A stretch of DNA of 64,000 bases from Candidatus Omnitrophota bacterium (GCA_042571405.1 JBHPHU010000001.1:9298-73297); one strand, 5' to 3'. Positions 7,519-59,426 are shown, counted from the stretch's first letter. Made by a program: numbers and translations. Notes: generated by a model not told the origin, from the letters alone.

Positions 7519-7519
7519 C

Positions 7520-10469: not shown

Positions 10470-10514
10470 ATAACGATCTAAGGTTACACTTCTAACATTG
10501 TAAAAAGTGTCAAC

Positions 10515-11444: not shown

Positions 11445-11447
11445 TTA

Positions 11448-12491
11448 TCACTCCACATCCGCATAAAAGAATTTTTTGCCTTCAAAATTTTTAAATATAT
11501 ATCTCTTGCCTTTATGTTTGATAATATATTTTGGAAGCAAGGGCGTCTTGCCTCCTCCATGCTTTAAGTCAACTATAAGATGCGGGATCGCCAAACCAGA
11601 GGTATATCCTATTAACTCCCGCATGATTTTTTTGGCCTTGCGTATGCTGACACGAAAATGATACGTACCCTTAACCGCGTCAGCAAGATAAAGATAATAT
11701 GGCCTTACCCTTATCATCAGGAGTTCTTCGAATAGCCTTTTTAGCGTCTTTGCGTCATCATTTACTCCTCGCATAAGAACTGTCTGATTCCCCATGACAA
11801 CACCCGCATCAGCCAGCATATTGCATGCTTTTCGACTTTCCCTGGTTATCTCATAATAATGATTGAAATGCGTATTGAGATAAATAGGCTGGTATTTTTT
11901 AATGATACCGCACAGCTTAGGCGTTATCCTCTGCGGTAAAACGCATGGAGTACGGCTGTCTATCCTGATAATCTGCACGTGCTTTATTTTCTTCAGCTCC
12001 TTCAGGTAATGCTCGATCATATCATCCGGTATGAGCAGCGGGTCTCCTCCTGATATAATAACATCCCTTATGTACTTACGTTTTTGTATATACTTCAGAG
12101 CTTTTTTGAAATTTTCTTTTTTTGAAATCTTATCCTTAAGGCCCACTTTTCTCTTCCTGGTGCAGAAACGACAATATCCAGCGCACATATTGGACACCAC
12201 CACAAGCACGCGATCCCTGTATCTATGGACCAAACCTTCGAAAGGTGTATACTTCTCTTCCATAAGAGGATCTTTTCTGCCAAGCTTCTGAATAATCTCT
12301 ATTGTGTCAGGTATGCACTGCTTCCATATAGGCCCGCCATGTCTTCTTATAAGGCTGAGATAATATGGATTTATTCCAAGAGTATATTTTTTAGAGACTC
12401 TATTTACCTTTTTTTTGTTTATCTTTACATGCTTACTGAGTGTCTCGACATCAGTTATGGTATTAGAAAGAATCTTCTGCCATTTTTCCAT
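11448..12491 (-). CDS. KamA-family radical SAM aminomutase (lysine 2,3-aminomutase-like)
   Basis: CAGYCRFCTRK cluster motif, GGDPL motif, family-typical length of 347 aa. Confidence 0.85.
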   Translation of the reverse strand: MEKWQKILSNTITDVETLSKHVKINKKKVNRVSKKYTLGINPYYLSLIRRHGGPIWKQCIPDTIEIIQKLGRKDPLMEEKYTPFEGLVHRYRDRVLVVVSNMCAGYCRFCTRKRKVGLKDKISKKENFKKALKYIQKRKYIRDVIISGGDPLLIPDDMIEHYLKELKKIKHVQIIRIDSRTPCVLPQRITPKLCGIIKKYQPIYLNTHFNHYYEITRESRKACNMLADAGVVMGNQTVLMRGVNDDAKTLKRLFEELLMIRVRPYYLYLADAVKGTYHFRVSIRKAKKIMRELIGYTSGLAIPHLIVDLKHGGGKTPLLPKYIIKHKGKRYIFKNFEGKKFFYADVE

Positions 12492-12514
12492 GGATCTTCC
12501 TTCTCTCGGATTTT

Positions 12515-13345
12515 TTAAGATAAGATCTTTTCTAGCTGATTAAGATTTATAAACGTACCGTATTTTTTAAGAAGAGTTAATTTTTCTTCTGTCTCTTTTA
12601 TTTTTTCTTTGGACTCATATTCATAGGTATGGCCAAGTACGGAAACCACTATATTGCTTTTATTGTCCACAGATTTACCCTTTAAATCAAGTGCTATTTT
12701 TTCTAACTCTGCCATGTCAGATTTTTCAAAATAGAGGTATTTGCGCTTTGAAACGCCGACAGGTATCTCCCAAACTTTGGAATTTCCAGGTTTACAATGA
12801 TTATCATAGCTCATTCTATACTGCTGTCTGGGCGCGCCTCTCCAATCAGCTATTAAAATATCGCCGTGTTTCAAAAATCTTTCGGGTTCGCATGAAAAAT
12901 CAAAATAAATCTCATTCTGTTCCAGAATTCTTACAATCTTGCTTGAAAATCCCAAAAATCCGCTCCTGTAACACCTGGTGTCCAGACCAGCCTTCCTAAA
13001 TGCCTGGGCCCGCTTGCCAATCACCTTCTCCATCCGAGAGCCATCATGGTAATAATAATCTCTGTAAGAATCATCTTCGTGACAGTGAAGCCCTGTATCT
13101 CCGCCAAATCTTACAAGTTCCTTCCAAAGCTTACAAAATGGCTTCTCAAGAAAAAAATCCCGGCATAGGGGCGAAGTGTGAACAAAATGTATAAATCGGC
13201 CCTGTAGCACACGACTGGCAAGCTCTATCTCACGCTGGACAAGCTCCAACAAAACCTCTTCCTTAGGCAATCGCTCACGATCACTCAATTTAAGATCAAA
13301 ATATTCCCCCCAATCCCCATCTATAGTATATATAAAATACAACAT
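12515..13345 (-). CDS. hypothetical protein (possible deacetylase-like fold)
   Basis: Long clean ORF in operon position behind the KamA-like gene. No motif recognised with confidence. Confidence 0.5.
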   Translation of the reverse strand: MLYFIYTIDGDWGEYFDLKLSDRERLPKEEVLLELVQREIELASRVLQGRFIHFVHTSPLCRDFFLEKPFCKLWKELVRFGGDTGLHCHEDDSYRDYYYHDGSRMEKVIGKRAQAFRKAGLDTRCYRSGFLGFSSKIVRILEQNEIYFDFSCEPERFLKHGDILIADWRGAPRQQYRMSYDNHCKPGNSKVWEIPVGVSKRKYLYFEKSDMAELEKIALDLKGKSVDNKSNIVVSVLGHTYEYESKEKIKETEEKLTLLKKYGTFINLNQLEKILS

Positions 13346-13397
13346 ACCTATATTCTAACTGAATATCCTTCTTTGTTCAAGGTTAATACCTAAAACT

Positions 13398-13601
13398 CTC
13401 GCTCGTCTTTTTGAGCTCACAGGCTGGGGCCTTCGGCACTGGAGAGATTTTGCCGTCCGCTACGGTTTACAACTCGTTTCTCGACCACGCTATCGCCTGG
13501 ATTTCCTGGCCCGAAACTCCCTGTAAATCCTTGCGGACTTTTGCCAAAATCTTCCTAATGTGTCTCAAGCCCCAGCCTGTGAGCTCAAAAAGACGAGCGA
13601 G
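13398..13601. other. 204-nt GC-rich rod-like hairpin with 33-bp perfect terminal inverted repeats (candidate structured RNA or MITE)
   Basis: ctcgctcgtctttttgagctcacaggctggggc at 13398-13430 is the exact reverse complement of 13569-13601. The interior pairs imperfectly (gagattttg / caaaatcttc, gtccgc / gcggac, tttaca / tgtaaa). Confidence 0.7.
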
Positions 13602-13624
13602 CAAATAAAAGGATCTGCTTATAA

Positions 13625-13940
13625 AAGCTAAAAAGGAAGGGTTGAAGAGCGAATTTGAAAATTTAGTCTTTTATGTAGCATTTTGGCGGTTTATTCTGCC
13701 ACATTCTATGAGGCAAAAAGGCCGAAAACTGTTCGACACCCACACCTATGGTGTGGGTGAAGTTTTTTCGGCCCCACCAAAATGCGGAATAAAAGACGAC
13801 CCCGCCCTTTTGTTTAGTGCGTTTCGCATTATGAATGCATCAGCAATTTATAATGCGTAACGCTTACTGTAAAGCTAGACACCTTAACAAAAGGGTGGGG
13901 GAAATTTTCATCTGAGCGAACAGACCTTCCTTTTTAGCTT
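13625..13940 (+). ncRNA. candidate ~316-nt multi-stem structured RNA of unknown family
   Basis: 16-bp perfect closing stem (13625-13640 / 13925-13940). Nested hairpins include ggccgaaaaact..agttttttcggcc around cacccacacc-tat-ggtgtgggtg. Also ccccgcccttttgtt / aacaaaagggtgggg (G.U valid on the + strand only) and gcgtttcgcattat..ataatgcgtaacgc. Confidence 0.45.
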
Positions 13941-14015
13941 AAGACTGTACTGTGACTATTCAAATGCTATAAGCAACAACTATACTTTATTGCACTTATA
14001 AGGTACAATACTTGC

Positions 14016-15941
14016 ATGATTTATGATGCGTTTCAGAAAACGGCTATTGATTATATTAAAGATGGGAATTCGGTTATAGTGTCTGCTCCGACAGGTGCGG
14101 GCAAGACTGTAATTGCTGAATATATCATACTGGACTGCCTTAAAAAAGGTACAAAGGTAATATATACCGCTCCTATAAAGGCCCTGTCTAACCAGAAATT
14201 TCGCGACTTTCAGGAAATATTCCCTGATAAAACAGGCATACTCACGGGTGATGTGTCTATAAATCCCAACGCGAGTGTCCTTATCATGACCACAGAGATA
14301 TTCCGCAACAAAGTGCTTGAAGAAGGGTCTAATGTGGGTGATTATTCCTGGATAATATTTGACGAAGTGCATTATCTTGATGATTACCAGCGCGGGAGCG
14401 TGTGGGAAGAATCTTTGATCTTCCTGCCGAAGCACATGAAAATGCTTGCGCTCTCAGCCACAATACCAAATATAGATGAACTTGCCTTGTGGCTCAAATC
14501 CATACACAAACTGCCTTTAAAGGTAGTAAAAGAAAATACCAGGCCAGTACCGCTTCATTTTTTCTATCAGATACAGGGTCAGATAGTTGATAATATACAT
14601 AAGGCAAGAACCATAGGATACAAAAGAGGCGGGCATAGCTATGGCCATAGAAGATCCCATTCCGGACATAAGCACTTCAAACCAAACAGGTCCACTTCGC
14701 TCATAAAGCATCTTCACGAAAACAATAAACTCCCATGCATATATTTTGCCTTTGGCAGACGCAGATGCGAATCTCTCGCGAATGAAATGACAAACTTTGA
14801 TTTCTTAACGCAGGAAGAAAAAACCAGGGTATTAGAACTTTATAATAAATTATGCGAGAGATTTGAGATCGCAAATGATAAAAGCGCTCAGCTCATGCTT
14901 CCTCTAATTGAAAAAGGTATAGCACACCATCATGCTGGCATGCTCCCTACTTTAAAGGAGGTTATTGAGCGACTTTTTACATCCAGGCTTCTAAAGGTAA
15001 TTTTTACCACAGAGACTTTTGCGCTTGGGATCAATATGCCCGCAAGGACAGTGATCTTTGATGAGCTTAGAAAATTCTATGGGAAATCCTTTGGCACACT
15101 TAAGACACGTGACTTTTTTCAGATGGCTGGCAGGGCTGGCAGGCGCGGTATAGACAAAGAGGGATTTGTGTATAGCCGCGTAAATCCAAATTACACATCA
15201 TTCCCTGAACTCCAAAAAGTAATCTATGGCGCTCCTGAAAAGGTTTTTTCCAGATTCAACGCGTCATACGGCACTATCCTTAACCTGTATGACAAATACG
15301 GTGAAAAGCTGTATGATGTATATCCTCTTTCCTTCCACTGCTTCCAGGCAAAGCAAAAGTTTAGACACAGGGCCACAGAACTACTACGCGCAAAGGTAAA
15401 GATCCTGAAAGAACTCGGCTATATCAGAAAAAATCAAATTTCAGAAAAAGGCGTTTTCGCGTCCAATATCTACGGGTATGAGTTATCACTGGGCGAGCTT
15501 TACGAAAAAGGTGTATTGCAAAATCTAAATGAAATAGAACTTGGAATTCTGTGCGCCGCGCTTATATTTGAACCAAGAAAATCCAGCACCATGCCAAGTA
15601 TCAGCAAAAACGCACGGTCTTTACAAAATGTAACCGACAATCTTACCAGCAATATACAAAAATTAGAAAAAAAGCTAAAGATAAAACCTTTCAGCAAGAC
15701 CTATTATTACCACTTCTCCCCCTGCATTGAGGCGTGGATGAAACAGGAACCATTTGACAGGCTCCTGCGCTACACAGACGCTGACGAAGGTGAGATCATA
15801 AGAAACTTCCGCATGTCTGTCCAGATCCTACGCGAAATCCTAGACACCCCCACTTCCCAGGAGTTCAAAGAAAGAGTAAAAAAGACAATCTACCTAATAA
15901 ATCGAGACATAATCGATGCGGAGAGACAGCTGCGAAGCTAG
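14016..15941 (+). CDS. Ski2-like DEAD/DEAH-box helicase (HelY/Mtr4-like)
   Basis: Motif I APTGAGKT, motif II DEVH, HHAGMLP, QMAGRAGRRG. The C-terminal region is DSHCT-like. Confidence 0.8.
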   Translation: MIYDAFQKTAIDYIKDGNSVIVSAPTGAGKTVIAEYIILDCLKKGTKVIYTAPIKALSNQKFRDFQEIFPDKTGILTGDVSINPNASVLIMTTEIFRNKVLEEGSNVGDYSWIIFDEVHYLDDYQRGSVWEESLIFLPKHMKMLALSATIPNIDELALWLKSIHKLPLKVVKENTRPVPLHFFYQIQGQIVDNIHKARTIGYKRGGHSYGHRRSHSGHKHFKPNRSTSLIKHLHENNKLPCIYFAFGRRRCESLANEMTNFDFLTQEEKTRVLELYNKLCERFEIANDKSAQLMLPLIEKGIAHHHAGMLPTLKEVIERLFTSRLLKVIFTTETFALGINMPARTVIFDELRKFYGKSFGTLKTRDFFQMAGRAGRRGIDKEGFVYSRVNPNYTSFPELQKVIYGAPEKVFSRFNASYGTILNLYDKYGEKLYDVYPLSFHCFQAKQKFRHRATELLRAKVKILKELGYIRKNQISEKGVFASNIYGYELSLGELYEKGVLQNLNEIELGILCAALIFEPRKSSTMPSISKNARSLQNVTDNLTSNIQKLEKKLKIKPFSKTYYYHFSPCIEAWMKQEPFDRLLRYTDADEGEIIRNFRMSVQILREILDTPTSQEFKERVKKTIYLINRDIIDAERQLRS

Positions 15942-25881: not shown

Positions 25882-28020
25882 CTACTTTCCTTCCCAGAAT
25901 TTTTCTGCTTCTTCTTCCATCTTCTCGAGACGATCGTAATAATCCGGAAATTCATTCAGGTGGGCTAATGCTATCTTTCCTGTAATCAAGGGGTCATTGT
26001 TGCTGACATTTGTGGAAACGTCTTCCAGGCCATGCTCGAGCTCTACATCCATACCTCTTCTGAATTGATCGACATTAAACTTGTCCCATTTAATGCCTAT
26101 CTTCTCACCAACTGCCTTTGCCTCTTCATTGCTGAAATGTTTTTTTAGCACCATAAAGACATCCGGCATAGGATAGTCACCATGTTTTTTCCTGCAATCC
26201 TCTAACCGCTTCTTCTGGTCATTAAGGGTTCTCATTAATATAGCTGGAGTGTCAAAGACCTTTGTATGGTAGATATTTTTTATTCTCTCTATTTTGGCCA
26301 GGCATTCGGGAATACGGATCTTAAATTGTTCTTTGTATTCTTCTTCTGTATAAACCTTGCCGCGTACAGTCTCGAACAATGCTCTGAGATCTTTATATTT
26401 GGGGATATACCCTATTGGCGTCTTTATTACACCTACATCATCATTGACTCGCAGCTCCATCCATTTGATCCATACATGTTTATCTTTGATGTCGTTTAAA
26501 AATTTCCCGTCTTTTCCGCGCAGGAAATAATTTACGTGGAATATAAGCGGCTGGTTTTTAACGCCCTGCACTATATCAAGATTATTTTGAATATATCTAC
26601 CTATTGGTACAGAGAGGAAGTCCAGGTTTGCCATGAGATTAAATTTTCGAACACCCTCCTGACCAAGCGTAGCAGCTGTAGTCTCTGATTCTATCGCGGC
26701 GCCTTGCGCGAGTATGCCATGCGACCAGTCAAATGATTGCGCAATAGGAACACTTGTATCTGAATCACGGCCTCCATAGATAATCCCGCCTACTTCCACG
26801 CCATTTGGATTCTCAAGGTTTTTATCACAGTTCTTGAGGTCTTTTAGGCCTATAGTATAACGCGCATTTTTATGCGCGTACGGAACTTCTTTTCCGTCAG
26901 GATCTTTCTTGCCGGGTATCCATTTTCCTGAAAAATTAATACCTTTTGCCGGAGCTTCTCTGTCATCACCCAGCCAACGCGGATTATTCTTCTCATCTAT
27001 TAATATATTTGAAAAGATAACCTCTCCTGGAGTAGTTAACGCCTCGAATATAGCAGGATCGTTCTTTTCGCTCACATCCTGTATGATCCCAAAAATACCC
27101 TTTTCTACATTGACCGTGCGTATCTTTCCGTCAATTTTGCGTAAATACGCAATATCATCACCTATGATCTTCTCACCACCGAGCATGGCAGTAGCAGTCT
27201 TGCCGCATGCGGACGGGAAAGAGCCAGTAAAATAAGTAACGCGTTTTTTATCAGGGCCGTGTACGCCCATAACAAACATATGTTCTGTAAGCCACCCCTC
27301 TTCTGAAGCGCGCCTGATAGCAAGGCGCATTGAGAGTTTTTTAAGTCCGACAGTGTTGCCGGCATACTGTGTATTCGCACTTAAAACCATTTCCTCTTCA
27401 ATGTCTATATATACACGGCGCTTGTCGACATTTTTACTGACAGCTCCGTCCAATTCACCGGCAGTATGAACAGCTCTAAAAAAACTTCCTTTATCGTTAA
27501 GTTTTTTAACCTGCTCATACCCGCTACGGTAAAGCATGTCTTCTGAATGCGCAACATAGCTTGAATCAGTCACTTGTACGGCTGAAATGGAAAATTCAGA
27601 ATCAGTAGGGCCTAGACAATAAAAACACACGTACATCTCCTTGCCCTTCATCGCATCCTTAAAAAAACCGTGTATCTCTTTTAGCCCCTCTTCTCTGTCA
27701 ACTGACTTTATATCCGAACCAAGCACTTCATCCGGCCTCAGAAGATACCTTGTATTCGCCTTATCCCTTGCCTGATCATGGTATCCGTCAAAATGTATTG
27801 TATGGCCTTTTATGGCAAGAGCCTGCTCTTCTTTATTCTCCAAGGTCTTTTTTCGTATATAATCTGCGTCCTCTTTGGAGTCAGTCCGCACAAACACTGA
27901 ATCCGGGTTACAGAGTTCTACATATTTGGCAACAAAATCTATAACCTTAGCATTTGCAAGCGCTTCCAACTTTTTGTAGCTATCTTCCCCGCATTTTTTC
28001 TTAAGTAATTTTTTATCCAT
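25882..28020 (-). CDS. pckG: GTP-dependent phosphoenolpyruvate carboxykinase with an extra about 95-aa C-terminal DUF5661-like domain
   Basis: FPSACGKT kinase-1a motif and PEPCK-GTP body. The tail GMDVELEHG..TNVSNNDPLITGKIALAHLNEFPDYYDRLEKME is not part of canonical PEPCK. Confidence 0.85.
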   Translation of the reverse strand: MDKKLLKKKCGEDSYKKLEALANAKVIDFVAKYVELCNPDSVFVRTDSKEDADYIRKKTLENKEEQALAIKGHTIHFDGYHDQARDKANTRYLLRPDEVLGSDIKSVDREEGLKEIHGFFKDAMKGKEMYVCFYCLGPTDSEFSISAVQVTDSSYVAHSEDMLYRSGYEQVKKLNDKGSFFRAVHTAGELDGAVSKNVDKRRVYIDIEEEMVLSANTQYAGNTVGLKKLSMRLAIRRASEEGWLTEHMFVMGVHGPDKKRVTYFTGSFPSACGKTATAMLGGEKIIGDDIAYLRKIDGKIRTVNVEKGIFGIIQDVSEKNDPAIFEALTTPGEVIFSNILIDEKNNPRWLGDDREAPAKGINFSGKWIPGKKDPDGKEVPYAHKNARYTIGLKDLKNCDKNLENPNGVEVGGIIYGGRDSDTSVPIAQSFDWSHGILAQGAAIESETTAATLGQEGVRKFNLMANLDFLSVPIGRYIQNNLDIVQGVKNQPLIFHVNYFLRGKDGKFLNDIKDKHVWIKWMELRVNDDVGVIKTPIGYIPKYKDLRALFETVRGKVYTEEEYKEQFKIRIPECLAKIERIKNIYHTKVFDTPAILMRTLNDQKKRLEDCRKKHGDYPMPDVFMVLKKHFSNEEAKAVGEKIGIKWDKFNVDQFRRGMDVELEHGLEDVSTNVSNNDPLITGKIALAHLNEFPDYYDRLEKMEEEAEKFWEGK

Positions 28021-28089
28021 AGTGTTTTATATATTATCATAAGAGATAAATAAAGGCAAGTGGTTTTTTTATGGGCTGGCGACAGAAAG

Positions 28090-28986
28090 TTATTCTAATA
28101 AACTATATCCCTGCAGAATGCTCTCAGCGAAAAAATTAGCTATAGGATCAAATCTATGTATGTCTCCCATCTGCAGAACACCATAGTAACGCTCTCTGTC
28201 TTTATTTTGTATCACACAAGGAGGAAAGCTTTTCGATAATAGCTGAGTTATAGAAATAAGCCTGCCCACTCTACCATTTCCATCGCTAAACGGGTGCATG
28301 TTTTCAAATTCATAATGATTAATAGCTGCTTTTTTTATCACATTACCCTCGTATATATTTACATCTGAGATGAATTCTTTGAATAGCTGCGGGACAAACT
28401 GGTAGTGAGGCAGTTTTTTCTGAAGCCCCCTTATACCTACATTTACTTTTCTTAATTGACCTGCGTCTTTACTTAAACCGTGCATAACCATTCTATGCAA
28501 TGACAATATAAAATCTTCATCTATTTTAAAATTCTTGATTGCTTTTGAAAATATAAACTCCAGCGCTGTTTTGTGGTTTATTGCCTCTTGTTGTTCCTTT
28601 TGGCTTTTATTAGCTAAAACGTCTCCTTTTATAATGATTCTCGCTGTATCATTTTCTGTCAAAGTACTGCCTTCTATTGCATCTGAATTATAGGTCAGTG
28701 TTATCAGAAATTTATTATATATGCTGGGGTTTTCTTTGATTGTTTTTAGGGGATTCTTGTGTCTTTTTTTTAATCCAGCGACCAATAAAGGTAGATCAGC
28801 TTTTTCTATAAATAACTTATACAGTTTTTGTCTATGTGCGGTATACGGTATTCTTTTCTCGTTGATCCACCTGTTTACAGTCTTATAATCGACCTCTAAA
28901 GTCCTGGCTATATCTGCCTGGTTCATGCCAGACATTTTCATAATACAACTAATCTGCTCTTGTACGGAAAATATACCATTTATCAT
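28090..28986 (-). CDS. Fic family protein with N-terminal XRE-type HTH
   Basis: HPFSDGNGRVGR Fic motif. N-terminal MSGMNQADIARTLEVDYKTVNRW is an HTH. Confidence 0.85.
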   Translation of the reverse strand: MINGIFSVQEQISCIMKMSGMNQADIARTLEVDYKTVNRWINEKRIPYTAHRQKLYKLFIEKADLPLLVAGLKKRHKNPLKTIKENPSIYNKFLITLTYNSDAIEGSTLTENDTARIIIKGDVLANKSQKEQQEAINHKTALEFIFSKAIKNFKIDEDFILSLHRMVMHGLSKDAGQLRKVNVGIRGLQKKLPHYQFVPQLFKEFISDVNIYEGNVIKKAAINHYEFENMHPFSDGNGRVGRLISITQLLSKSFPPCVIQNKDRERYYGVLQMGDIHRFDPIANFFAESILQGYSLLE

Positions 28987-29066
28987 AAATAATCACCTAT
29001 TAAAATATACCACATGGTGTATATTCTGTCAAGAGAAATCCTATATAGACGTCCCCAAATCCCGCC

Positions 29067-30170
29067 TTATATATTGGAGGAAAGTTTCTCCAGAAAAAAT
29101 AAGAATCGACCCTTGAAACCTATATCGGAGCTTAATTTTTTACCTTCTTCTTGGCTAACTATATTTTTATTTTCAAACATTGTAGATGCACTTTGAATAT
29201 TAAGATGACCTTGAAGAGCATTAACTATCATATTTTCTATTTTTTCTAATTCATAAATAGTTATTTTATCTTTAGAATCAATAGGAAGCCCTTGATGATA
29301 ACCTAATAATTTGTTAGTTTTCTCAACAGACAAATCTACCATACCCATCTTTACTAATTTTTCTAAGAATAAAAAAATGTATACGTGTTTTAACTCATGT
29401 CTCAAGTGCTCATCTGCTGTTGCAGGCATAGCATATCCTAGATTAAGAAAAGTCGTAGTAAGATAAACTGAAGCGACGATAATCGAAGGGAGGATAACAG
29501 GCAATACTGAAAAATAATTTGCTGAATGCATACATAAAGATATAGCATCTTGTAGGCTTGGTAAGGTCAATACAAAAACGGTCAATGGCACAATAGCTGA
29601 CCATGGGCTTGCAATTATTACTTTGTACTTATGTTTTTCGCCGCTAAAATCATGGGAAGTCTTCGAGTTAGAGTAGCCCATTAGGGCAAGATGTTCGAAT
29701 ATAAAAAATAAAGGTATTCCAATAATAATTAGAAGAACCGCTACAATGATTCTGTTAAAAAGTGATGTAAAAATCGGGCTTGATATAGAAGAGAAAATAC
29801 CGCGCAATCCATATCCAAAATTATTAGGCAGGAAATTAATTGCATTTTCTCTAACTCTAAGATAGTCTGTATTTAATTCTTTGGCTATTTTTTTTATATG
29901 TTTTTCAAATTCTAATCCGCTAAGCTCATCTTTTCCTTCAAAACTTGGTCTCAAATATTCAATAACGACTTTTATCTTCTTCTCTGCCTCGTTCTCCATT
30001 GCAATTCTCTTTTCTGCATTAACAATCCTTTGGTTATCTTCATTGCTAATCTCATCAAGCATTAAATTATTTCTAAGATTAGATGCAGCGTAAGCTATAG
30101 CATGAAAAAATATACACACGCTAACACAAATAGCGATAATTTTGAACAATACTTTTCTAAATCTCTTCAT
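29067..30170 (-). CDS. polytopic membrane protein with HExxH motif (putative metalloprotease)
   Basis: Signal peptide, several TM helices and an HELKH motif. No further family assignment. Confidence 0.4.
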   Translation of the reverse strand: MKRFRKVLFKIIAICVSVCIFFHAIAYAASNLRNNLMLDEISNEDNQRIVNAEKRIAMENEAEKKIKVVIEYLRPSFEGKDELSGLEFEKHIKKIAKELNTDYLRVRENAINFLPNNFGYGLRGIFSSISSPIFTSLFNRIIVAVLLIIIGIPLFFIFEHLALMGYSNSKTSHDFSGEKHKYKVIIASPWSAIVPLTVFVLTLPSLQDAISLCMHSANYFSVLPVILPSIIVASVYLTTTFLNLGYAMPATADEHLRHELKHVYIFLFLEKLVKMGMVDLSVEKTNKLLGYHQGLPIDSKDKITIYELEKIENMIVNALQGHLNIQSASTMFENKNIVSQEEGKKLSSDIGFKGRFLFFLEKLSSNI

Positions 30171-30331
30171 AATCCACCCAAAAAATTCTGCTTCGCTAAA
30201 AAGCTTTCACTTTTAGCTTCGCAGAAACTATTATATGTATCTAACTATAAGTATATCACAAATATTACACCTTGAGAAGGTCCCTACCTAATGATTGACA
30301 ATATTGCGAAAAAGAGGTAAATTAGGAACTT

Positions 30332-31210
30332 ATGGGAGAATTGCCAAAAGATAAACTGCTTACAATCAGAAAAATCCTCACTGAAGCGCAAAAAGGCAAA
30401 GATACGAAAGAACGCATTGAAATTTTTGTAAAAGAATTCAGCGATCAATACGATAATTTAGGTCCTGACGCAATAGCATGGATGCGGCATTCTGTATTGG
30501 TGGCGGAAGAAGTTTTTGGCCTGGAGATAGACCACTTCCTCGATAGCAGCCCGCAAGGCGCATGGGATAGCACCACACCCGTATTGACTGCGGCTATGCT
30601 CCATTACATAAAGCCGGAACACACTGTTATATCACTAGGCCCCGGTCCTTTCGCTACTGAGGCATGTGTGGTAAGCAAAGAAAAAGATATGCAGATTATA
30701 ACGCTGGAAATCTGGGAACCCTACATTGAGAGTGGCAAAAAAACCTCTGAAGCAAACAATGCCAATGTAATATTCATAAAATCTGACGTCTATACACCTA
30801 TAGACCCTGTACAGACGCGTTGTCTGCCGAAGGCAGACAACGCGTCTGTACAGGACAAAAACAAACTACCTGAGAATGTAGACTATATTACGTGGAACCC
30901 CCCTTATGTGCCAAGTGCGGATGCTAAAAAATCAGGTTTCTTTGATAGCCCTAAAGTGGTTTCGTATGCATTCGATGGCGGGCCGGAAGGCACAACATTG
31001 ATAGAGCGCGGCCTCAGAGAACTCCCTGAAAACTGGAAGACAAATGCTAAGCTACTCTTTGGCGTAAACACTGTAAAGGTGTCAGAAGACAGTATGCGTC
31101 GTATTGCAGAAAAAAACGGATTCAATCTGCTTGAGATATTTAAACTCTCTGGCAGTCCATGTGAAGTCTTTGTATTTCAGCACACTTCAGCTATTACCGG
31201 AGATAAATGA
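30332..31210 (+). CDS. SAM-dependent methyltransferase (NPPY-type, HemK/PrmC-like)
   Basis: TWNPPYVPS motif. Interrupted in frame by the palindromic element at 30806-30854. Confidence 0.7.
   Translation: MGELPKDKLLTIRKILTEAQKGKDTKERIEIFVKEFSDQYDNLGPDAIAWMRHSVLVAEEVFGLEIDHFLDSSPQGAWDSTTPVLTAAMLHYIKPEHTVISLGPGPFATEACVVSKEKDMQIITLEIWEPYIESGKKTSEANNANVIFIKSDVYTPIDPVQTRCLPKADNASVQDKNKLPENVDYITWNPPYVPSADAKKSGFFDSPKVVSYAFDGGPEGTTLIERGLRELPENWKTNAKLLFGVNTVKVSEDSMRRIAEKNGFNLLEIFKLSGSPCEVFVFQHTSAITGDK
30806..30854. repeat. GC-rich palindromic element, family 1, translated in frame
   Basis: cctgtacagacgcgttgtctgcc gaa ggcagacaacgcgtctgtacagg gives 23-bp perfect arms. Encodes PVQTRCLPKADNASVQ. Confidence 0.9.
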
Positions 31211-32550
31211 AAAAAATCGTTATTATAGGCGCAGGGCCAACCGGATTGGGAGCGGCTCATAGACTGAAAGAGCTTGGACATAAGAATTTTCTGGTTTACG
31301 AGAAAAACAGCTATCCCGGAGGTCTTTGCGCGAGCTTTAAAGATAAGCAGGGTTTTACCTGGGATCTGGGAGGACATGTCATATTCTCACATTATAAATA
31401 CTTCGATAAATTCTTAACGCATGCCCTTGGCAATAATTATCTAAAACATAAACGCAGGGCCTGGATACGCACAATGGATAGATGGATACCATATCCGTTT
31501 CAAAACAACTTAAGGTATCTGCCAAAAGAGATCATTACAGAGTGCCTGGACAGCCTCAGGCAAGTCCGACTAAAAAAAAAGAAATCAAATAATTTTAAAG
31601 AATGGGTATTTGATAATATGGGTAAAAGTATCGCCAAATATTTCATGCTCCCTTATAATTTTAAAGTCTGGGCGCATCCTATCCATATGTTGAGTTCTGA
31701 CTGGATCAATGAAAGAGTAAGTCCTGTAAAATTAAAAGATGCCGTAGAGTTATTGGCATCCGAAGCGGATGAAACTGACTGGGGACCAAACGCAACGTTT
31801 AAGTTTCCTCTCTTTGGAGGAACTAATACGATATTTAAAAAGACAGTATCTTCTCTGAATAGCCATATCCATTTTAATTCAGAATTAATAGGAGTTGACG
31901 CTGGATCAAAAAAGATCCTGCTCTCAGGAAACAGAAAAGAGAGTTACGATATACTGATAAACACCTCTCCTCTGGACAAATTCATAAAATTGATCAAAGG
32001 ATCCGGGAAGGACCTATCAAGCGCAGGTCTAAACCTAAAACACAACGGAGTATATATAGTAGGTATAGGTTTTAACAAACCATGCCCGAGCAATAAATGC
32101 TGGATGTATTTTCCTGATAAAAATAGCCCCTTTTTCAGAGTTACTTATTTTTCCAATTATTCTCCGAATAATGTTCCTGATAGTAAAAAACATTTCTCTT
32201 TGCTCTGTGAAAGCGCGTATTCTAAATATAAAAAAGAAGAAAAGGCAAAAATTGTGGAAAAGACTATTCAGGGATTAGTCAAATCGGGTTTGATAAAAAA
32301 ATCCGACAGGAAATTTATAATTTCAAAATTTTTATTTGATATAGATTGTGCATACCCAATACCTACTCTAAAAAGAAACGAGGCCTTACGGGAGATTCAA
32401 ACAGAGTTAGAAAAGATGGATATGTATTCTCGCGGCCGTTTTGGCGCATGGAAGTATGAAATTGGAAATACGGATCACTCCATGATGCAAGGTAAGGAAA
32501 TAGTGGATAGGCTTTTAAGAAAAGGAAAAGAAAAGGTGTGGAGTCTGTAA
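31207..32550 (+). CDS. FAD-dependent oxidoreductase, UDP-galactopyranose-mutase-like
   Basis: IIGAGPTGLGAA dinucleotide motif and C-terminal GRFGAWKYEIGNTDHSMMQG. Confidence 0.6.
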   Translation: MKKIVIIGAGPTGLGAAHRLKELGHKNFLVYEKNSYPGGLCASFKDKQGFTWDLGGHVIFSHYKYFDKFLTHALGNNYLKHKRRAWIRTMDRWIPYPFQNNLRYLPKEIITECLDSLRQVRLKKKKSNNFKEWVFDNMGKSIAKYFMLPYNFKVWAHPIHMLSSDWINERVSPVKLKDAVELLASEADETDWGPNATFKFPLFGGTNTIFKKTVSSLNSHIHFNSELIGVDAGSKKILLSGNRKESYDILINTSPLDKFIKLIKGSGKDLSSAGLNLKHNGVYIVGIGFNKPCPSNKCWMYFPDKNSPFFRVTYFSNYSPNNVPDSKKHFSLLCESAYSKYKKEEKAKIVEKTIQGLVKSGLIKKSDRKFIISKFLFDIDCAYPIPTLKRNEALREIQTELEKMDMYSRGRFGAWKYEIGNTDHSMMQGKEIVDRLLRKGKEKVWSL

Positions 32551-32551
32551 T

Positions 32552-33259
32552 ATGTCAGTTTCTATTGTAATGCCATGCTATAACGAAGAAGGAATTATTG
32601 AAAAAACAGTAAGGGCTTTCTATGATGAGATTGATTCCGTAATTAGCGATTCGGAATTCATAGTGATTGATGACTGCAGCATAGATAATACATACAATAT
32701 TCTGGAAAAATTAAAAAGTAACCTCCCGAAACTGAAGATCCTTAAAACACCTATTAATAGCGGTCATGGCAAGGCCATGTGGATGGGATATGAGCAGGCC
32801 CGAAAAGAATGGGTATTCCAGGTAGATAGCGACGGGCAATTTGAGGCCAGGGATTTCCGAAATCTATATGCGCTGAAAAACAAGTATGATTTTATACTTG
32901 GATTTCGCACAGTAAGGCACGATCCCACATATAGACTTCTTTTAGCAAAAATAATTCGCGCTGCGAATTTTGTCCTTTTTGGAACGTGGATCAGAGACGC
33001 CAACTGTCCATTCCGCCTGATAAAAAAAGAAATCCTTGATGAAATTCTTCAAGCAGTAGACAAAGAGACCTTGACGCCAAATATCATGATTTCAATCCTG
33101 GCAAAGAAAAAAAAGATTAATATGATAGAAGTTCCTGTAACCCATTACAAGAGAAAAACAGGTGTTGTCTCAATCGCAAACTGGAACCTTATAAAATTTG
33201 CACTTAAGGGATTAGGACAGCTCATATCTTTCAGAAAGAAACTAGCAAATGAAAGTTAA
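32552..33259 (+). CDS. family 2 glycosyltransferase
   Basis: VSIVMPCYNEE start, DDCSID (DxD), 235 aa. Confidence 0.85.
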   Translation: MSVSIVMPCYNEEGIIEKTVRAFYDEIDSVISDSEFIVIDDCSIDNTYNILEKLKSNLPKLKILKTPINSGHGKAMWMGYEQARKEWVFQVDSDGQFEARDFRNLYALKNKYDFILGFRTVRHDPTYRLLLAKIIRAANFVLFGTWIRDANCPFRLIKKEILDEILQAVDKETLTPNIMISILAKKKKINMIEVPVTHYKRKTGVVSIANWNLIKFALKGLGQLISFRKKLANES

Positions 33260-34733
33260 ACTGCATCCCATCATAATAATAGGCGGCCTTACGCTACTAG
33301 GCGGACTGCTTAGATTTTATCATCTAGGATATAAATCCCTATGGTTCGATGAAGCTGGACTCTACTGGATAGCTCGCGGCAGAGATATTATGGAAATAAT
33401 CTCTTTGAACGCCGCAGGGAACAGCGCTCCGCCCCTATTCCCCCTCCTGGTAAATCTTATCTCAAAGATCGGCGACTCGGAAGCAATATTACGATCTATA
33501 TCTTTCCTGGCCGGAACTGCTGCCATTCCCGCAGTATACTTTTTATGCAAACAGTTCCTTCACAGATACACTGCTTACTTTTGCGCGTTTCTTGTCGCTA
33601 TCTCCTCATCGCAAGTCATGTATTCTCAGGAACTGCGCGAATATTCTGTAGCGTTCCTCCTCGCGACATTGATACTTTTATTCTTCAATAGGTTCCTGCG
33701 CGAACAAAACTACAAAAATCTGCTCTACTTGGCATTGGCCTCTATTATAGGTATTTTTTCTCAATATGGCCTCGCGCTTTTAATCTTGGCTCTTAATCTG
33801 ATCGTAGCCGTAGAGTTATTTTTTATAAACGATAAAAAGAAACTACTTACCGGATGGGCTGCAATTCAATTCCTTGTACTGTGCGCAGCTATTGTGACCT
33901 ACCAGCTTTCACTGAGACATCAGATGGAATCAGGTTTTGGCGCCGGATATCTGGCAAATGCCTATTGGGACGGATCACTGGGCTCTTTGATCAAACTAGC
34001 AACAGTAAACACATATCAGTTTTTCGCATTCGCCTCTTCTGCGTCTGGCCTATTCTGTTTTATATTCTTCATCGGCTTCTTAAACGAGTTGAAAAAACGC
34101 TCTGATCGAACAGCGCTTATGCTGCTTATCTTTCCAATGGTCATTACATTTATCGCTGCGTGCGCCAGGCTATATCCATATCTTGGCAGAAGGCAAGATA
34201 TCTTTCTTGTGCCTATGATTTACGTTTTTGCAGGATTTGGGTTTGAGTTTTTGTCTAAGTTAGACCTTGTCCAGACGCGTTGTCTGCCGAAGGCAGACAA
34301 CGCGTCTGGACAAGGTAAGAAACGAATCATTATCTTGCCTTTAGTGTTAATTCTGGGATTCGTAGGACTTTATCGTACAGGAGAATATCTAAAAGATCCA
34401 GGATTCCAGCATATCAGGCCCGTCATAAAGACTTTGTCAGCTTCGTTTGAACCCAAAGACAGAATGTACATCTATTACGGAGCTAATCCCGCCTTTAGAT
34501 ATTATTATCGAAAGAATATGGATAGAAGGATTTATGGCGTGCGCAGTATAGAGAAACCTGAAAAATATCTCACGCAACTGGATGAAGCTTTATCAAAGCA
34601 AGGCCGTATCTGGATGGTATTTTCGCATTGCCATCCCAATGAACCTGAGTTAATCACGCAGCATACCTCTAAATACCGCAAAGTTAAGCTGGTTTCGACT
34701 AGCCCCGGGGCGTTTCTATATCTTGCGGACTAG
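33249..34733 (+). CDS. GT39/ArnT-like membrane glycosyltransferase
   Basis: Many TM helices and N-terminal YHLGYKSLWFDEA (DE motif loop). Interrupted in frame by the palindrome at 34265-34315. Confidence 0.6.
   Translation: MKVKLHPIIIIGGLTLLGGLLRFYHLGYKSLWFDEAGLYWIARGRDIMEIISLNAAGNSAPPLFPLLVNLISKIGDSEAILRSISFLAGTAAIPAVYFLCKQFLHRYTAYFCAFLVAISSSQVMYSQELREYSVAFLLATLILLFFNRFLREQNYKNLLYLALASIIGIFSQYGLALLILALNLIVAVELFFINDKKKLLTGWAAIQFLVLCAAIVTYQLSLRHQMESGFGAGYLANAYWDGSLGSLIKLATVNTYQFFAFASSASGLFCFIFFIGFLNELKKRSDRTALMLLIFPMVITFIAACARLYPYLGRRQDIFLVPMIYVFAGFGFEFLSKLDLVQTRCLPKADNASGQGKKRIIILPLVLILGFVGLYRTGEYLKDPGFQHIRPVIKTLSASFEPKDRMYIYYGANPAFRYYYRKNMDRRIYGVRSIEKPEKYLTQLDEALSKQGRIWMVFSHCHPNEPELITQHTSKYRKVKLVSTSPGAFLYLAD
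34265..34315. repeat. GC-rich palindromic element, family 1, translated in frame
   Basis: ccttgtccagacgcgttgtctgcc gaa ggcagacaacgcgtctggacaagg gives 24-bp perfect arms. Encodes LVQTRCLPKADNASGQ. Confidence 0.9.
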
Positions 34734-36148
34734 ATTTTTATGATCCTGTAATCTCTAAGCCTCTGTATCAGGAATTTTATCTGGCGCAGCCTGACAAATT
34801 TAACAAGCTTTAAAATTATAGAAAATCTAAAATAAAAAACCCTGAACGCCTTAGCTTGAGCCTTCATAAGTTCTTCTCGAGTCAAACCTTCAGGAATCCA
34901 CTCAGGTTCTTTATAGCTATTCTTATTCCAGTCGGGCTTGAAACTTCCTTTTAGTCTGCACCAAAGTTCTGACCCTGGCAGTATATCCAGTATCACAAAC
35001 TGTGCCCTTGAAAGCCTTGACCTTCTTGCGAAATCTATAGTCTCCTCTATAGTCTCACGCGTTTCTCCAGGCAGTCCAAAAATGAAAAACCCCTGACATG
35101 AGATCCCTTCTTTATCCGCTATCTCTATAGCCTTGTTAATGGTTTCTAGCGTTGTGTGTTTTTTTAGATTATTCAAGATAGCTGGACTAGCGGATTCTAT
35201 GCCCATGGAAAAATAATAACAGCCGCTCTTTACCATTAATTTCACTAATTCCTTATCGATCTTGTCTGCCCGCACACCACTGGGAAGGCTCCAACTTATC
35301 TTCAGTTTATTCTGAATTATAAGATTGCATATTTGCTCTATATGAGTTCTCTTGAACGTAATATTATCATCTACAAACTGGATTTCTTTAACGCCGAAAT
35401 CTTTAACCAAATGCTTGATCTCTTCTACGACATTTTCAGGCGACCTGAATCGTATCTTCCTATCACAGAATCCCGGACTAGCGCAAAAAATACACTCGTA
35501 AGGACAGCCTCGCGTAGTTATCATAGAACCGATGGGGAAATTTTTTACTATAGCTCCGTACGGAGCCCTTGAATAAAGCTTTGGGGATATTTGCGTCCAA
35601 TCAGGAAATGGTATTTTGTCCAAGTCTTGAATGACCTCTGCTTTTACTATCACGTCATCATCGCTCTTTAAATCTCCCATTGAATATACGCCTGGTATTC
35701 CGTCGTTCTTGAAATTATTCTGGATCAATTTTAGAAATGCTATCTCAGCCTCTCCGCATATAACAAAATCAGCCCTGGTATCTAATAAAGTTGAATAGGG
35801 TAAAAAGGTAGGATGAACTCCTCCGATAACGCATCGGATACTATGGTCTTTTATGCCTTTGCATAAATCTACTGTTTCATTGTAAAAAGCCGTTAAACTG
35901 CTTATCCCGACTATGTCTGGTTTTTCATCGAGTATTATTTTCAGTATCTCTTTATTATTTAGCCTATCCCTTAACCCATCTATTATTTTTATCTCGATCC
36001 TGTGTTTTTCTAAATATGAGGCCAGGTATCCTATTCCTAGAGGGGGTGTGATAATGTGGCTTTTATAATTTGGCCTGACTAATATAACCTTCATTTGGGT
36101 ACAGCCATCCACTCCCCTCTTATTTTGATTGCGTGCTGCGGCTCGCAC
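34730..36148 (-). CDS. B12-binding-domain radical SAM protein
   Basis: N-terminal cobalamin-binding-like domain followed by TRGCPYECIFCAS (CX3CX2C variant). Confidence 0.8.
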   Translation of the reverse strand: MRAAARNQNKRGVDGCTQMKVILVRPNYKSHIITPPLGIGYLASYLEKHRIEIKIIDGLRDRLNNKEILKIILDEKPDIVGISSLTAFYNETVDLCKGIKDHSIRCVIGGVHPTFLPYSTLLDTRADFVICGEAEIAFLKLIQNNFKNDGIPGVYSMGDLKSDDDVIVKAEVIQDLDKIPFPDWTQISPKLYSRAPYGAIVKNFPIGSMITTRGCPYECIFCASPGFCDRKIRFRSPENVVEEIKHLVKDFGVKEIQFVDDNITFKRTHIEQICNLIIQNKLKISWSLPSGVRADKIDKELVKLMVKSGCYYFSMGIESASPAILNNLKKHTTLETINKAIEIADKEGISCQGFFIFGLPGETRETIEETIDFARRSRLSRAQFVILDILPGSELWCRLKGSFKPDWNKNSYKEPEWIPEGLTREELMKAQAKAFRVFYFRFSIILKLVKFVRLRQIKFLIQRLRDYRIIKI

Positions 36149-58716: not shown

Positions 58717-58995
58717 CGTCTTATCCGCTCGCGTAACTAGAGATAAAGAGAGATAATACAGAGATAAAATCCTAGTTTATCTCTGTATTCAGGAAAATAT
58801 ATATTGGATATACTTCGAAATAATCGCCAAAATAGCCCGTTACTAGAAAGTGTTAACTAAGTGGCGATTTAGAGATAAAGAGATAAGGTGGGAGTGAAAT
58901 CCCTAAAGAAGATCTTTTAGAGATAATCGAATAAATTAAGAACAAAATACCGTCGGAAAACATAGCGCCTAAGTGTTTGACGCGTTGTCAGATAC

Positions 58996-59396: not shown

Positions 59397-59426
59397 GTGT
59401 GAATTTTGTTAAAGAACGAATATTAA

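Follow-up and report, generated by a model that had tools for sequence, protein, structure and literature searches.

Two palindrome families and their host genes

The window, the whole 64-kb stretch of DNA analyzed here, comes from a MAG of the Omnitrophota. Four of its five full palindromes lie in frame within intact genes and are thus not extragenic. The first host gene (30332-31210, plus strand; MFC1620700.1, locus tag ACFL2G_00195) is annotated as an intact CDS and encodes a HemK/MTQ2-like NPPY methyltransferase, for which NCBIfam matches were weak and a Pfam search gave no match. The second (33249-34733, plus strand; MFC1620703.1) has a PMT_2 match and encodes a GT39-like membrane glycosyltransferase, labelled GT39 by NCBI. 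The product of the third (7442-9940, plus strand) is a laminaribiose-phosphorylase-like GH94 phosphorylase, whose best solved relative is the laminaribiose phosphorylase 6GGY (E about 1e-254). These three genes carry palindromes of family 1, while a gene for a polyferredoxin-type membrane protein with Fer4_5 and Fer4 domains (3767-5242, minus strand) holds a family-2 copy.

Palindrome A (30806-30854) was found in the methyltransferase gene exactly as described in an earlier note on this DNA, with 23-nt perfect arms and the loop GAA. Palindrome B, which the note had placed at 34265-34315 in the GT39-like gene, is present at this site, but really extends over 34264-34316, with one more base at either end (25-nt perfect arms around the loop GAA). 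The other shared features named there were also recovered: A and B have a common 37-nt core (CAGACGCGTTGTCTGCC-GAA-GGCAGACAACGCGTCTG), each is directly preceded by TAGACC, and both are translated in one common frame. Palindrome A corresponds to codons 159-174 of the methyltransferase (peptide PVQTRCLPKADNASVQ) and palindrome B to residues 340-356 of the GT39-like protein (peptide LVQTRCLPKADNASGQG).

Beyond the earlier note, the window contains a third family-1 palindrome, a half-arm and a second palindrome family. Palindrome C (8239-8280; 21-nt arms with one mismatch, no loop) is located inside the GH94 gene and is read as (D)PVRTRCPDNASVQG, in the frame of A and B. The common frame of the three copies is only weakly informative, with a chance agreement of about 0.25, because a TAGAC target permits two frames. 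The half-arm (GACGCGTTGTC; 58979-58989, plus strand) is solitary and intergenic; it could represent one REP-like monomer on its own, or else a relic. In family 2, the palindrome at 4359-4411 has 25-nt perfect arms and consists of three GACCTCGTAGGTC units within CCATTCC/GGAATGG; its in-frame translation, from the minus strand, is PFRPRRSTYEVDLRGRN and lies in the linker of the 4Fe-4S membrane protein. The second copy (61480-61514; 16-nt perfect arms) is intergenic and placed after the stop codon of a POR alpha-like gene and before the ribosome-binding site of a POR beta-like gene. GTAG is contained in the family-2 units (CCTCGTAGG).

With three family-1 copies plus the half-arm and two family-2 copies per 64 kb, the repeats are far above shuffle expectation and the repeat family is real. 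The 17-mer arm had four matches, compared to 0.03 expected by chance, and the hairpin stems in 10 dinucleotide shuffles were never longer than 10 bp. The whole element folds into one hairpin: single-stranded folding of A and B yielded -47 and -51.5 kcal/mol as RNA and -31 and -34 kcal/mol as DNA, with z-scores of approximately -12 to -13. Furthermore, a mini stem-loop can be read directly within each arm (CAGAC-GCGTT-GTCTG in family 1 and AACCT-CGT-AGGTT in family 2). Among six family-1 copies, four stem positions were changed on both sides, and 93% of the cells were paired.

Empty sites and junctions of family 1

All 24 GT39-like homologues (41-61% identity) were devoid of exactly the 17 palindrome-encoded residues, and the two closest relatives of the methyltransferase (52% and 45% identity) were devoid of exactly 16. 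In nucleotides, this corresponds to additions of 51 nt (34266-34316) and 48 nt (30806-30853), respectively. Judged by these alignments, the peptides encoded by A and B are lineage-specific insertions of 16 and 17 residues, in agreement with the 16-18 aa insert that the earlier note had proposed to look for among orthologues. The orthologous empty site reads GTAGAT/AGAAAACGA, the slash marking the insertion point. Compared in codons, the empty locus L045 has AAG GTA GAT/AGA AAA CGA and the window has AAG TTA GAC/51 nt/AAG AAA CGA. No target-site duplication was detected at copy B (empty GAT/AGA, filled GAC/51 nt/AAG). A classical MITE was rejected, since there is no internal segment between inverted repeats and no duplication at copy B.

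The peptide of palindrome C aligns without gaps to a loop of 6GGY, showing that a distant GH94 homologue without the palindrome has the same length here. Therefore, a simple insertion is not demonstrated at the GH94 copy. The earlier note had named a homologous peptide in distant orthologues without palindromic DNA as evidence against its proposal; such evidence was partly obtained, at this third copy only.

TAGAC is located 5' of copies A (30801-30805, plus strand), B (34261-34265) and C (8235-8239), and the 3' context is AARAAAC at all three sites. Four family-1 copies have TAGAC or TAGAA on their 5' side; family 1 also has an internal CGTC, and no clear 5' GTAG tag was found at its copies. 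This recurrent junction suggests that TAGAC is a target or recognition site for family 1.

The AlphaFold models of the GT39-like protein and the methyltransferase had mean pLDDT values of 90 and 83, respectively. In line with the loop positions suggested in the earlier note, confidence fell at both inserts: over residues 341-360 in the GT39-like protein, where the insert occupies 340-356, and over 161-176 in the methyltransferase, where it occupies 159-174. According to these models, the inserts occupy tolerated loop positions. The host proteins are presumably still functional.

A transposase gene bracketed by the same palindromes

The RAYT/TnpA-like gene that the earlier note had suggested searching for was found in other Omnitrophota assemblies, where the same two palindrome families directly flank both ends of a gene for an HUH/Y1 transposase of 210-225 aa. 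In Ca. Gorgyraea atricola (L043/L046), a 211-aa protein (P0054) is encoded between family-1 palindromes, of which the upstream one ends 19 nt before the ATG and the downstream one starts 2 nt past the stop codon. Palindrome C of the window and the palindrome at this RAYT gene's 3' end are identical except for one base. The upstream arrangement is the same in L041. Family-2 palindromes flank the gene of RAYT P0084 in L096, and their arms are identical to those of the palindrome at 61480-61514. Three further loci (L049, L050-L054 and L055/L057) have their own long palindrome on each side of the transposase; that of L055 terminates in GGTAGAT. Altogether, long near-perfect palindromes were present on both sides at five of the seven RAYT-type loci compared (L046, L049, L050-L054, L055/L057 and L096). 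At L095 both flanks contain imperfect palindromes only, and L098 has a pair of small hairpins on the upstream side and lacks any downstream.

These flanked loci belong to related genomes and not to the MAG of the window, and no RAYT gene was found in the 64-kb window. A RAYT homologue, P0086 (MFC1621106.1), is very probably part of the same MAG, since its accession is 406 numbers past that of the window methyltransferase MFC1620700.1 (window proteins, MFC1620697-731). P0086 is approximately equidistant (60-70% identity) from all sampled RAYTs. The homologue search yielded 2817 transposase homologues, and among the matches listed every organism-named one was from Omnitrophota/Omnitrophica.

A Y1 transposase with hairpins on both sides would also be expected if the palindromes were miniature (PATE/MITE-like) derivatives of an autonomous IS200/IS605-type element instead of a domesticated REP/RAYT system. 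Transposase and hairpins would then constitute a multicopy insertion sequence entering 3' of a fixed pentanucleotide. Indeed, P0054 passes the Pfam model Y1_Tnp, 'IS200 like' (29.6 bits; cut-off, 23), and matches the NCBIfam RAYT model only below the curated cut-off (52 bits versus 80). In addition, the hairpins at both gene ends resemble left and right IS ends, and TAGAC before all three family-1 copies recalls the target specificity of IS608 and ISDra2 (PMC3479197). The systems have in common the Y1 HUH transposase chemistry, probably the recognition of single-stranded DNA hairpins, and insertion beside a fixed tetra- or pentanucleotide with no target duplication (copy B).

However, the top NCBIfam family of P0054 is REP_Tyr_transpos (E 6e-14), and the best solved relative of P0086 is 4ER8, the E. 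coli TnpA-REP (E 1e-4), whereas the E value with the IS200/IS605 TnpA of ISDra2 is about 0.6 (0.64). In the alignment with 4ER8, MPTHIHLV lies over LPEHMHCI (HUH motif), RYIHLNP lies over DYIYINP, and the catalytic Tyr is aligned. Moreover, both flanking hairpins are one and the same palindrome and not distinct left and right ends, and the dispersed copies are bare hairpins without internal sequence. The transposase was also found in a single conserved chromosomal context at each locus examined; the neighbourhood of P0060, for example, was the same in five samples. We consider a derivation from IS200/IS605-type elements unlikely.

Less likely still is that the hairpins are functional modules selected by the host and spread by recruitment, not selfish insertions. 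Such modules might be RNase III targets, ribosome-pausing sites, transcription attenuators or DNA sites for protein binding, or else the encoded Cys-containing peptide loop might be useful. The perfect 21-25 bp RNA helices (-34 to -52 kcal/mol) are in principle long enough for double-strand-specific RNases, symmetry is preserved by compensatory changes, and one copy is situated exactly between two operon cistrons. However, the hosts are functionally unrelated (methyltransferase, glycosyltransferase, phosphorylase and ferredoxin), the inserts are within low-confidence loops, homologues manage without them, and the hairpin conservation is already explained by the RAYT association. Family 1 has no stop codon in any frame, in contrast to family 2, in which stops are present in some frames. 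Of the suggestion in the earlier note that the lineage tolerates, or is selected for, translation of the repeats, tolerance was supported rather than selection.

An origin of the palindromes as artefacts of assembly or amplification, for example from chimeric fold-back reads, is highly improbable: all window copies are from one MAG and displacement amplification can yield perfect inverted repeats, but the 48- and 51-nt additions and the 42-nt third palindrome all leave long ORFs open, the same palindromes are beside the same gene in independent JGI, ENA and NCBI assemblies, and the differences between copies are symmetric substitutions.

Proposed REPIN-like elements and related systems

We propose, with a probability of about 0.78, that these palindromes of Omnitrophota are REP-dimer (REPIN)-like, non-autonomous elements, mobilized by a RAYT and tolerated by their hosts in the form of disordered loops. 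The element would be a near-perfect, GC-rich hairpin of 35-55 nt with a REP-like stem-loop in each arm. It would be recognized as a single-stranded DNA hairpin and moved by its cognate RAYT; this HUH/Y1 tyrosine transposase is a relative of E. coli TnpA-REP, and its gene is bracketed by the same palindromes. Family 1 would have entered three genes of the MAG, on the coding strand and directly 3' of TAGAC, and the surviving copies would be those with an added length that is a multiple of three and a position in a surface loop. Each insert would add a disordered loop of 14-17 residues while the fold is kept, and compensatory changes in both arms would hold the hairpin symmetry among copies. The lineage-specific insertions and the RAYT flanking in relatives support the idea, already put forward in the earlier note, that the hairpin repeats form a mobile family whose translation is tolerated. 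Mobility is deduced here rather than observed as excision or insertion polymorphism, and the copy numbers refer to the 64-kb window.

Of the known classes, REP/REPIN-RAYT comes closest, ahead of Rickettsia palindromic elements (RPEs) as such. Our comparison included E. coli TnpA-REP with REP/BIME and the Pseudomonas REPINs (PMC2817692, PMC3116915, PMC3479197); RAYTs flanked by cognate REPs have already been described (PMC2817692). Common features are an HUH/Y1 transposase nearest to TnpA-REP among solved structures, a transposase gene bracketed by cognate palindromes, a separate palindrome family for each RAYT lineage, and bare hairpins dispersed away from the gene. As in REPINs, each arm is a REP-like unit, and the two, in inverted orientation, form one long hairpin with conserved symmetry. 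In REPINs, a pair of REPs and the spacer between them span about 100 nt. Unlike classical REPs, which are imperfect and 20-40 nt long, the palindromes described here are perfect or near-perfect, almost spacer-free and 35-55 nt long. Further differences from the systems compared are the 5' foot of family 1, which is TAGA(C/A) and not GTAG, the intragenic and translated state of four of the five window copies, and the host phylum. No paper linking RAYTs with Omnitrophota was found in the literature searched, and our data extend RAYT/REP-type repeat systems to this uncultivated phylum. Similarly, no defined RAYT insertion target was found in the REP/RAYT literature examined; from the TAGAC junction, a concrete and testable target site can be postulated for a RAYT.

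Intragenic, codogenic REPs and REP dimers have also been described, with the largest numbers of GTAG- or CGTC-tagged intragenic REPs in Opitutus terrae and Rickettsia conorii (Di Nocera 2013; PMC3733652). As in our case, they are in frame in otherwise normal genes, a RAYT association was proposed, and GTAG is present, here in the family-2 unit. In contrast to those REPs, which are reported to be enriched in replication and repair genes and treated as the minority, the inserts in the window encode 14-17 residues, their hosts are glycan and energy-metabolism genes, and the intragenic copies are four of five. The palindromes are apparently unrelated to the families of PMC3733652, as judged without formal comparison.

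RPEs (RPE-1 to RPE-8; Ogata et al. 2000, 2002, cited in PMC3733652) are likewise in-frame palindromes in apparently functional ORFs that add a surface peptide. The RPE-like behaviour claimed in the earlier note holds insofar as an in-frame palindrome missing from orthologues was found in two hosts (the GT39-like protein and the methyltransferase), but REP/REPIN-RAYT is the closer class. The likeness to RPEs considered here is one of behaviour, and the host is a member of the Omnitrophota, not Rickettsia. RPEs are not known outside Rickettsia and for the most part exceed this length (about 100-150 bp for RPE-1), and we know of no established cognate transposase flanked by RPEs for RPE-1. The palindromes open no new category and are a further example of a known element type, since in-frame intragenic REPs and RPEs were already described. 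They represent clean cases of hairpin absorption into proteins, as the additions are exactly 48 and 51 nt, an empty site is available and the inserts are positioned in loops. Such inserts put loops without homology, as well as highly stable mRNA hairpins, into otherwise ordinary genes, where they can mislead alignments, the calling of domains and the quality control of assemblies.

It is conceivable, albeit rather doubtful, that coding sequence and not extragenic space is the main niche of the REPIN-like population in this lineage, with site-specific RAYT insertion 3' of TAGAC, possibly in an A-rich 3' context. If so, most surviving copies in a gene-dense genome would be in-frame loops of 14-17 residues, and genes would contain perfect mRNA helices of 21-25 bp that are read through by the cell or modulate expression.

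Palindromes in coding sequences of the window

Both palindromes described in the earlier note are present. Copy A (30806-30854; CCTGTACAGACGCGTTGTCTGCC-GAA-GGCAGACAACGCGTCTGTACAGG) has 23-nt perfect arms, and copy B (34264-34316; ACCTTGTCCAGACGCGTTGTCTGCC-GAA-GGCAGACAACGCGTCTGGACAAGGT) has 25-nt perfect arms. Both lie in long ORFs and, as stated in that note, share one reading frame. The hosts agree with its description: a HemK/MTQ2-like methyltransferase with a WNPPY motif (30332-31210) and a PMT_2 protein named GT39 by NCBI (33249-34733). The methyltransferase, MFC1620700.1 (locus tag ACFL2G_00195), gave only weak NCBIfam matches and no Pfam match. MFC1620703.1, encoded on an 85,133-bp contig of "Candidatus Omnitrophota bacterium", matches the GT39-like protein with 100% identity, and neighboring ORFs of the window correspond to MFC1620697 to MFC1620731; according to the NCBI annotation, the methyltransferase and GT39-like genes are intact coding sequences.

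A third copy of this family (family 1), copy C (8239-8280; CCCTGTACGGACGCGGTGTCC/GGACAACGCGTCCGTACAGGG, 1 mismatch), was detected within the GH94 gene (7442-9940), where it is read in the same frame as copies A and B and encodes LDPVRTRCPDNASVQG. Furthermore, a lone family-1 half-arm (GACGCGTTGTC) is located in an intergenic region at 58979-58989. The members of a second family share the unit ACCTCGTAGGT. One of them (4359-4411, 25-nt perfect arms) is translated in frame as PFRPRRSTYEVDLRGRN, within the linker of a 4Fe-4S membrane protein. The other (61480-61514, 16-nt arms) separates the stop codon of a POR alpha-like gene from the ribosome-binding site of its beta-like neighbor. Of the five full palindromes in the 64-kb window, four are therefore intragenic; ORFs of at least 150 aa cover approximately 84% of the window.

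The 17-nt arm core occurs 4 times, compared with 0.03 occurrences expected from shuffles, and the longest hairpin stem in 10 dinucleotide shuffles of the window was at most 10 bp. Single-stranded folding of copies A and B yielded -31 and -34 kcal/mol as DNA and -47 and -51.5 kcal/mol as RNA, with z-scores of about -12 to -13. An Rfam search with the palindromes matched no known RNA family. In a scan of viral contigs, family 1 was not found, and a family-2 15-mer gave 37 single matches, by a rough estimate no more than expected by chance. An AT-rich imperfect inverted repeat, with 55-nt arms (76% complementary) and short CGAAAT-like units, is present at 1635-1761, between the ORFs 557-1615 and 1791-2492.

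Insertion in the host proteins

Alignment of orthologues, proposed in the earlier note to reveal a lineage-specific insert, showed that the palindrome-encoded segment is absent from relatives of two of the host proteins. In the GT39-like protein, LVQTRCLPKADNASGQG is exactly missing from 24 of 24 homologues (41-61% identity), and the flanking D and KKR are conserved. The orthologue on contig L045 (59% identity), which is embedded in the same gene order (GT2/FAD oxidoreductase/PMT_2), reads AAG GTA GAT/AGA AAA CGA, compared with AAG TTA GAC/51 nt/AAG AAA CGA in the window. In this comparison, L045 has a clean empty site without target duplication. In the two closest methyltransferase representatives (52% and 45% identity), the missing stretch is exactly PVQTRCLPKADNASVQ, 16 residues or 48 nt. 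Most of the remoter matches are split in two, ending near residue 158 and restarting near residues 178-184, with the insert in between.

The claim that the inserts occupy loops agrees with AlphaFold models of the two proteins, which are of high confidence overall (mean pLDDT, 90.1 and 82.9) and in which pLDDT drops at the inserts and both are predicted as low-pLDDT coil or loop. In the GT39-like model, residues 341-360 have a pLDDT of 55-62; the insert (340-356) starts in the final residues of helix 318-345 and continues into coil 346-361, which is followed by helix 362-382. In the methyltransferase model, residues 161-176 have a pLDDT below 50, and the insert (159-174) is modeled as coil between the preceding strand and the strand leading into NPPY.

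Lineage specificity was not apparent for copy C. The GH94 protein is a close relative of the laminaribiose phosphorylase 6GGY (E value of ~1e-254), to a loop of which the 14 palindrome-encoded residues align without gaps or length change; V-(Q/E)-G is common to both at the right edge. In cellobiose phosphorylase, this stretch is shorter by 4 residues. Either the loop was shorter in an Omnitrophota ancestor, or native sequence was replaced by the element.

The methyltransferase and GT39-like genes are located in a variable region, since the 10-kb block that contains them is missing from a related Omnitrophota contig, L100. On this contig, whose TypA is 93% and Orn/DAP decarboxylase 84% identical to those of the window, just three small genes lie between decarboxylase and TypA (10001-14655). 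The same interval of the window (25882-36148) contains PEPCK, Fic, a 367-aa membrane protein, the methyltransferase, the FAD oxidoreductase, GT2, the GT39-like gene, and radical SAM. A 33-nt palindrome in a 227-aa gene of L100 was dropped from consideration, because this gene is not homologous to the 227-aa ORF of the window. The GTP-dependent PEPCK (25882-28020, minus strand) comprises 712 aa with a C-terminal DUF5661 domain at residues 634-704; its cluster relatives at 86-88% identity have 621-625 aa.

RAYT genes flanked by the palindromes

The search for a RAYT/TnpA-like gene, also suggested in the earlier note, uncovered RAYT-type ORFs flanked by family-1 and family-2 palindromes in other Omnitrophota contigs. 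When metagenomes were scanned for the palindrome core, a C-type palindrome, a perfect 42-mer, was found on the low-GC contigs L041 and L043. On L043, this palindrome closely follows the stop of a 211-aa ORF, and the start of the ORF is closely preceded by an A-type palindrome, ACCTGTACAGACGCGTTGTCTAGACACCGCGTCTGTACAGGT; on L041, the C-type palindrome is upstream of the same ORF. The 211-aa ORF matched Pfam Y1_Tnp ("Transposase IS200 like") with 29.6 bits (cutoff, 23), and its best NCBIfam family was "REP-associated tyrosine transposase" (E value of 6e-14; 52 bits, below the 80-bit cutoff). It corresponds to the "transposase" of Candidatus Gorgyraea atricola, whose gene on the 119-kb contig L046 (1696-2331) is bracketed by palindromes at 1635-1676 and 2334-2375. 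A search with the 211-aa protein yielded 2817 homologues, and all organism names among the matches listed were Omnitrophota or Omnitrophica.

Six further RAYT loci were sampled. Long near-perfect palindromes of the locus's own family were present on both sides at four of them (L049, L050-L054, L055/L057, and L096), the RAYT of L095 has imperfect palindromes on its flanks, and that of L098 has two small hairpins on the upstream side only. The flanking palindrome of L096, GGCAACCTCGTAGGTTGCC...GGCAACCTACGAGGTTGCC, has arms identical to those of the window copy at 61480-61514, and that of L055, CCATCCGCAACCTCGTAGGTTGCGGATGG, is similar to the copy at 4359-4411 in outer stem and unit. Additional copies at these loci are both intragenic, such as a family-2 copy in frame within a TPR protein gene of L096 (...WQPRRLPPLPLATYEVAKG...), and intergenic (L049 and L095). 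Because of this mixture, the intragenic bias in the window may be particular to its MAG or may represent sampling noise.

No RAYT was detected in the 64-kb window by tblastn. A 224-aa homologue, MFC1621106.1 ("Candidatus Omnitrophota bacterium"), is encoded on a 43-kb contig, almost certainly of the same MAG, because its accession number is 406 past that of the methyltransferase MFC1620700.1, itself roughly the 39th locus tag of its assembly (ACFL2G_00195). Among solved structures, E. coli TnpA-REP is the closest to this homologue (4ER8; E value of 1e-4), with the HUH motif and the catalytic tyrosine aligned; the E value against ISDra2 TnpA was 0.64. RAYT similarity did not link this protein to either family 1 or family 2, since identities among all RAYTs sampled are 57-71%, with a star-like pattern, and it is equidistant from them.

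Each arm contains a mini stem-loop (CAGAC-GCGTT-GTCTG in family 1 and AACCT-CGT-AGGTT in family 2), so that a full element consists of two inverted REP-like units with next to no spacer between them. This is the architecture of REPINs, which were reportedly defined by Bertels and Rainey. The half-arm at 58979 fits a monomer. When the three window copies and three RAYT-flanking copies of family 1 were aligned (n = 6), four stem positions were found to change on both sides (e.g., CAG...CTG versus CGG...CCG and CCTGTAC versus CTTGTCC), and 93% of cells pair, compared with 24-43% with the partner slid. The conserved feature of family 1 is thus the hairpin itself. Such conservation would be expected if a Y1 transposase recognizes it as folded single-stranded DNA, a mode of recognition shown for TnpA-REP and IS608 (PMC3479197).

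TAGAC is located directly 5' of all three family-1 copies in the window, including copy C, and the 3' flanks of copies A, B, and C are GACAAAAAC, AAGAAAC, and AAAAGAAAC, respectively. The junctions of the 3'-flanking copy at the L046 RAYT are TTAGAA/palindrome/AAAAGG. The flanks of copy B are host sequence, the orthologous empty site being TAGAT/AGAAAAC. Together, these three or four junctions point to site-specific insertion 3' of TAGAC. In this role, TAGAC would be analogous to the target sequences of 4 or 5 nt used by IS200/IS605 elements and to the GTAG tag of E. coli REPs; Messing et al. (PMC3479197) demonstrated this tag and the binding of hairpins in single-stranded DNA. We propose that the RAYT would recognize the hairpin as folded single-stranded DNA, that the element would insert 3' of TAGAC, and that survival in genes would reflect simple filtering for copies that keep the frame and lie in loops that tolerate the insert. 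Copies A and B add 48 and 51 nt, and copy C is a palindrome of 42 nt; the frame is kept in all, and the two tested inserts are in loops.

The earlier note had considered that the hairpins are tolerated in, or selected for, translation. Selection was not supported: the window family-1 copies lack stop codons in any frame, but stops are present in family 2, in the L049 family, and in one RAYT-flanking family-1 copy, and a stop-free design in all frames was rejected as a general rule. A preference for frame or orientation was likewise not supported; all 3 family-1 copies agree in both, yet this is not significant at n = 3, and the shared frame is weak evidence, because the TAGAC target already excludes one frame. 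The proposal of mobile hairpin repeats that are tolerated in translation is supported by the two in-frame inserts, the empty site, and the flanking of RAYTs. We conclude that the data support RAYT-associated, REPIN-like palindromes inserted in frame.

RAYTs flanked by cognate, coevolving REPs were defined by Nunvar et al. (PMC2817692). The intragenic behavior is already known, since Di Nocera et al. reported REPs and REP dimers inside genes, encoding 20-30 residues; these were most numerous in Opitutus terrae and R. conorii, those of the latter being RPE-4 and RPE-6 (PMC3733652). Within the literature library searched, no paper mentions both RAYTs and Omnitrophota. New are Omnitrophota as a host phylum of RAYT/REP-type repeats, the perfect, spacerless form of 42-53 nt, the clean empty site, the recurrent TAGAC junction, and the high intragenic share in the window.

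Other palindromes and neighboring elements

Other Omnitrophota contigs carry further long palindrome families at or overlapping gene 3' ends, at L095 4689-4735, L096 4991-5039, 8638-8674, and 12914-12964, and L053 5645-5678; examples are AAGTTGACACTT(C/G)TGACA..., AACTTTACATTT.AGGTA..., and AGCCGTGTAGGTCGCC.... Omnitrophota seem to harbor several distinct families of hairpin repeats side by side. A degenerate-pattern scan of genome contigs gave 36 matches; the genomes concerned all have 55-79% GC, and the hairpins apparently arose by chance. Two Caldilineaceae matches are vaguely similar to family 1: palindromes such as ACAGACGCGGTGTCC(N5)GGACACCGCGTCTG in Caldilineaceae MAG chromosomes (L010 4288-4316 and L019 5816-5844) resemble the family-1 arm beyond the pattern-fixed bases, which may be due to chance or distant relationship. 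Five JGI metagenome contigs (L037, L038, L039, L042, and L044; 52-55% GC) share the hairpin AAAGCAACGGACGCGTTGTCGT...ACGACAACGCGTCCGTTGC with similar flanks; this is a separate palindromic repeat family, which has only the pattern-imposed core in common with family 1.

A group I catalytic intron (Rfam RF00028; 81 bits; E value of 4e-19) was detected on the minus strand at 59114-59341, within 59066-59397. Its flanks read as a tRNA-Asn(GUU)-like gene interrupted within the anticodon loop (...GCGTGGCTGTT/intron/AACCACG...GGTTCGAGTCC...GCCA), and ARAGORN found no tRNA in the window, presumably due to this intron. The adjacent POR beta/TPP-binding subunit gene (59427-61466, minus strand) contains an intein at residues ~147-507 (Pfam Intein_splicing, 53.9 bits; Hint also matched) with the LAGLIDADG-like motifs LGLYIGDGW and VEGLMLSDGY. 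The intein is presumably kept in POR beta relatives of ~90% identity from other datasets, since these have the same length of 679 aa.
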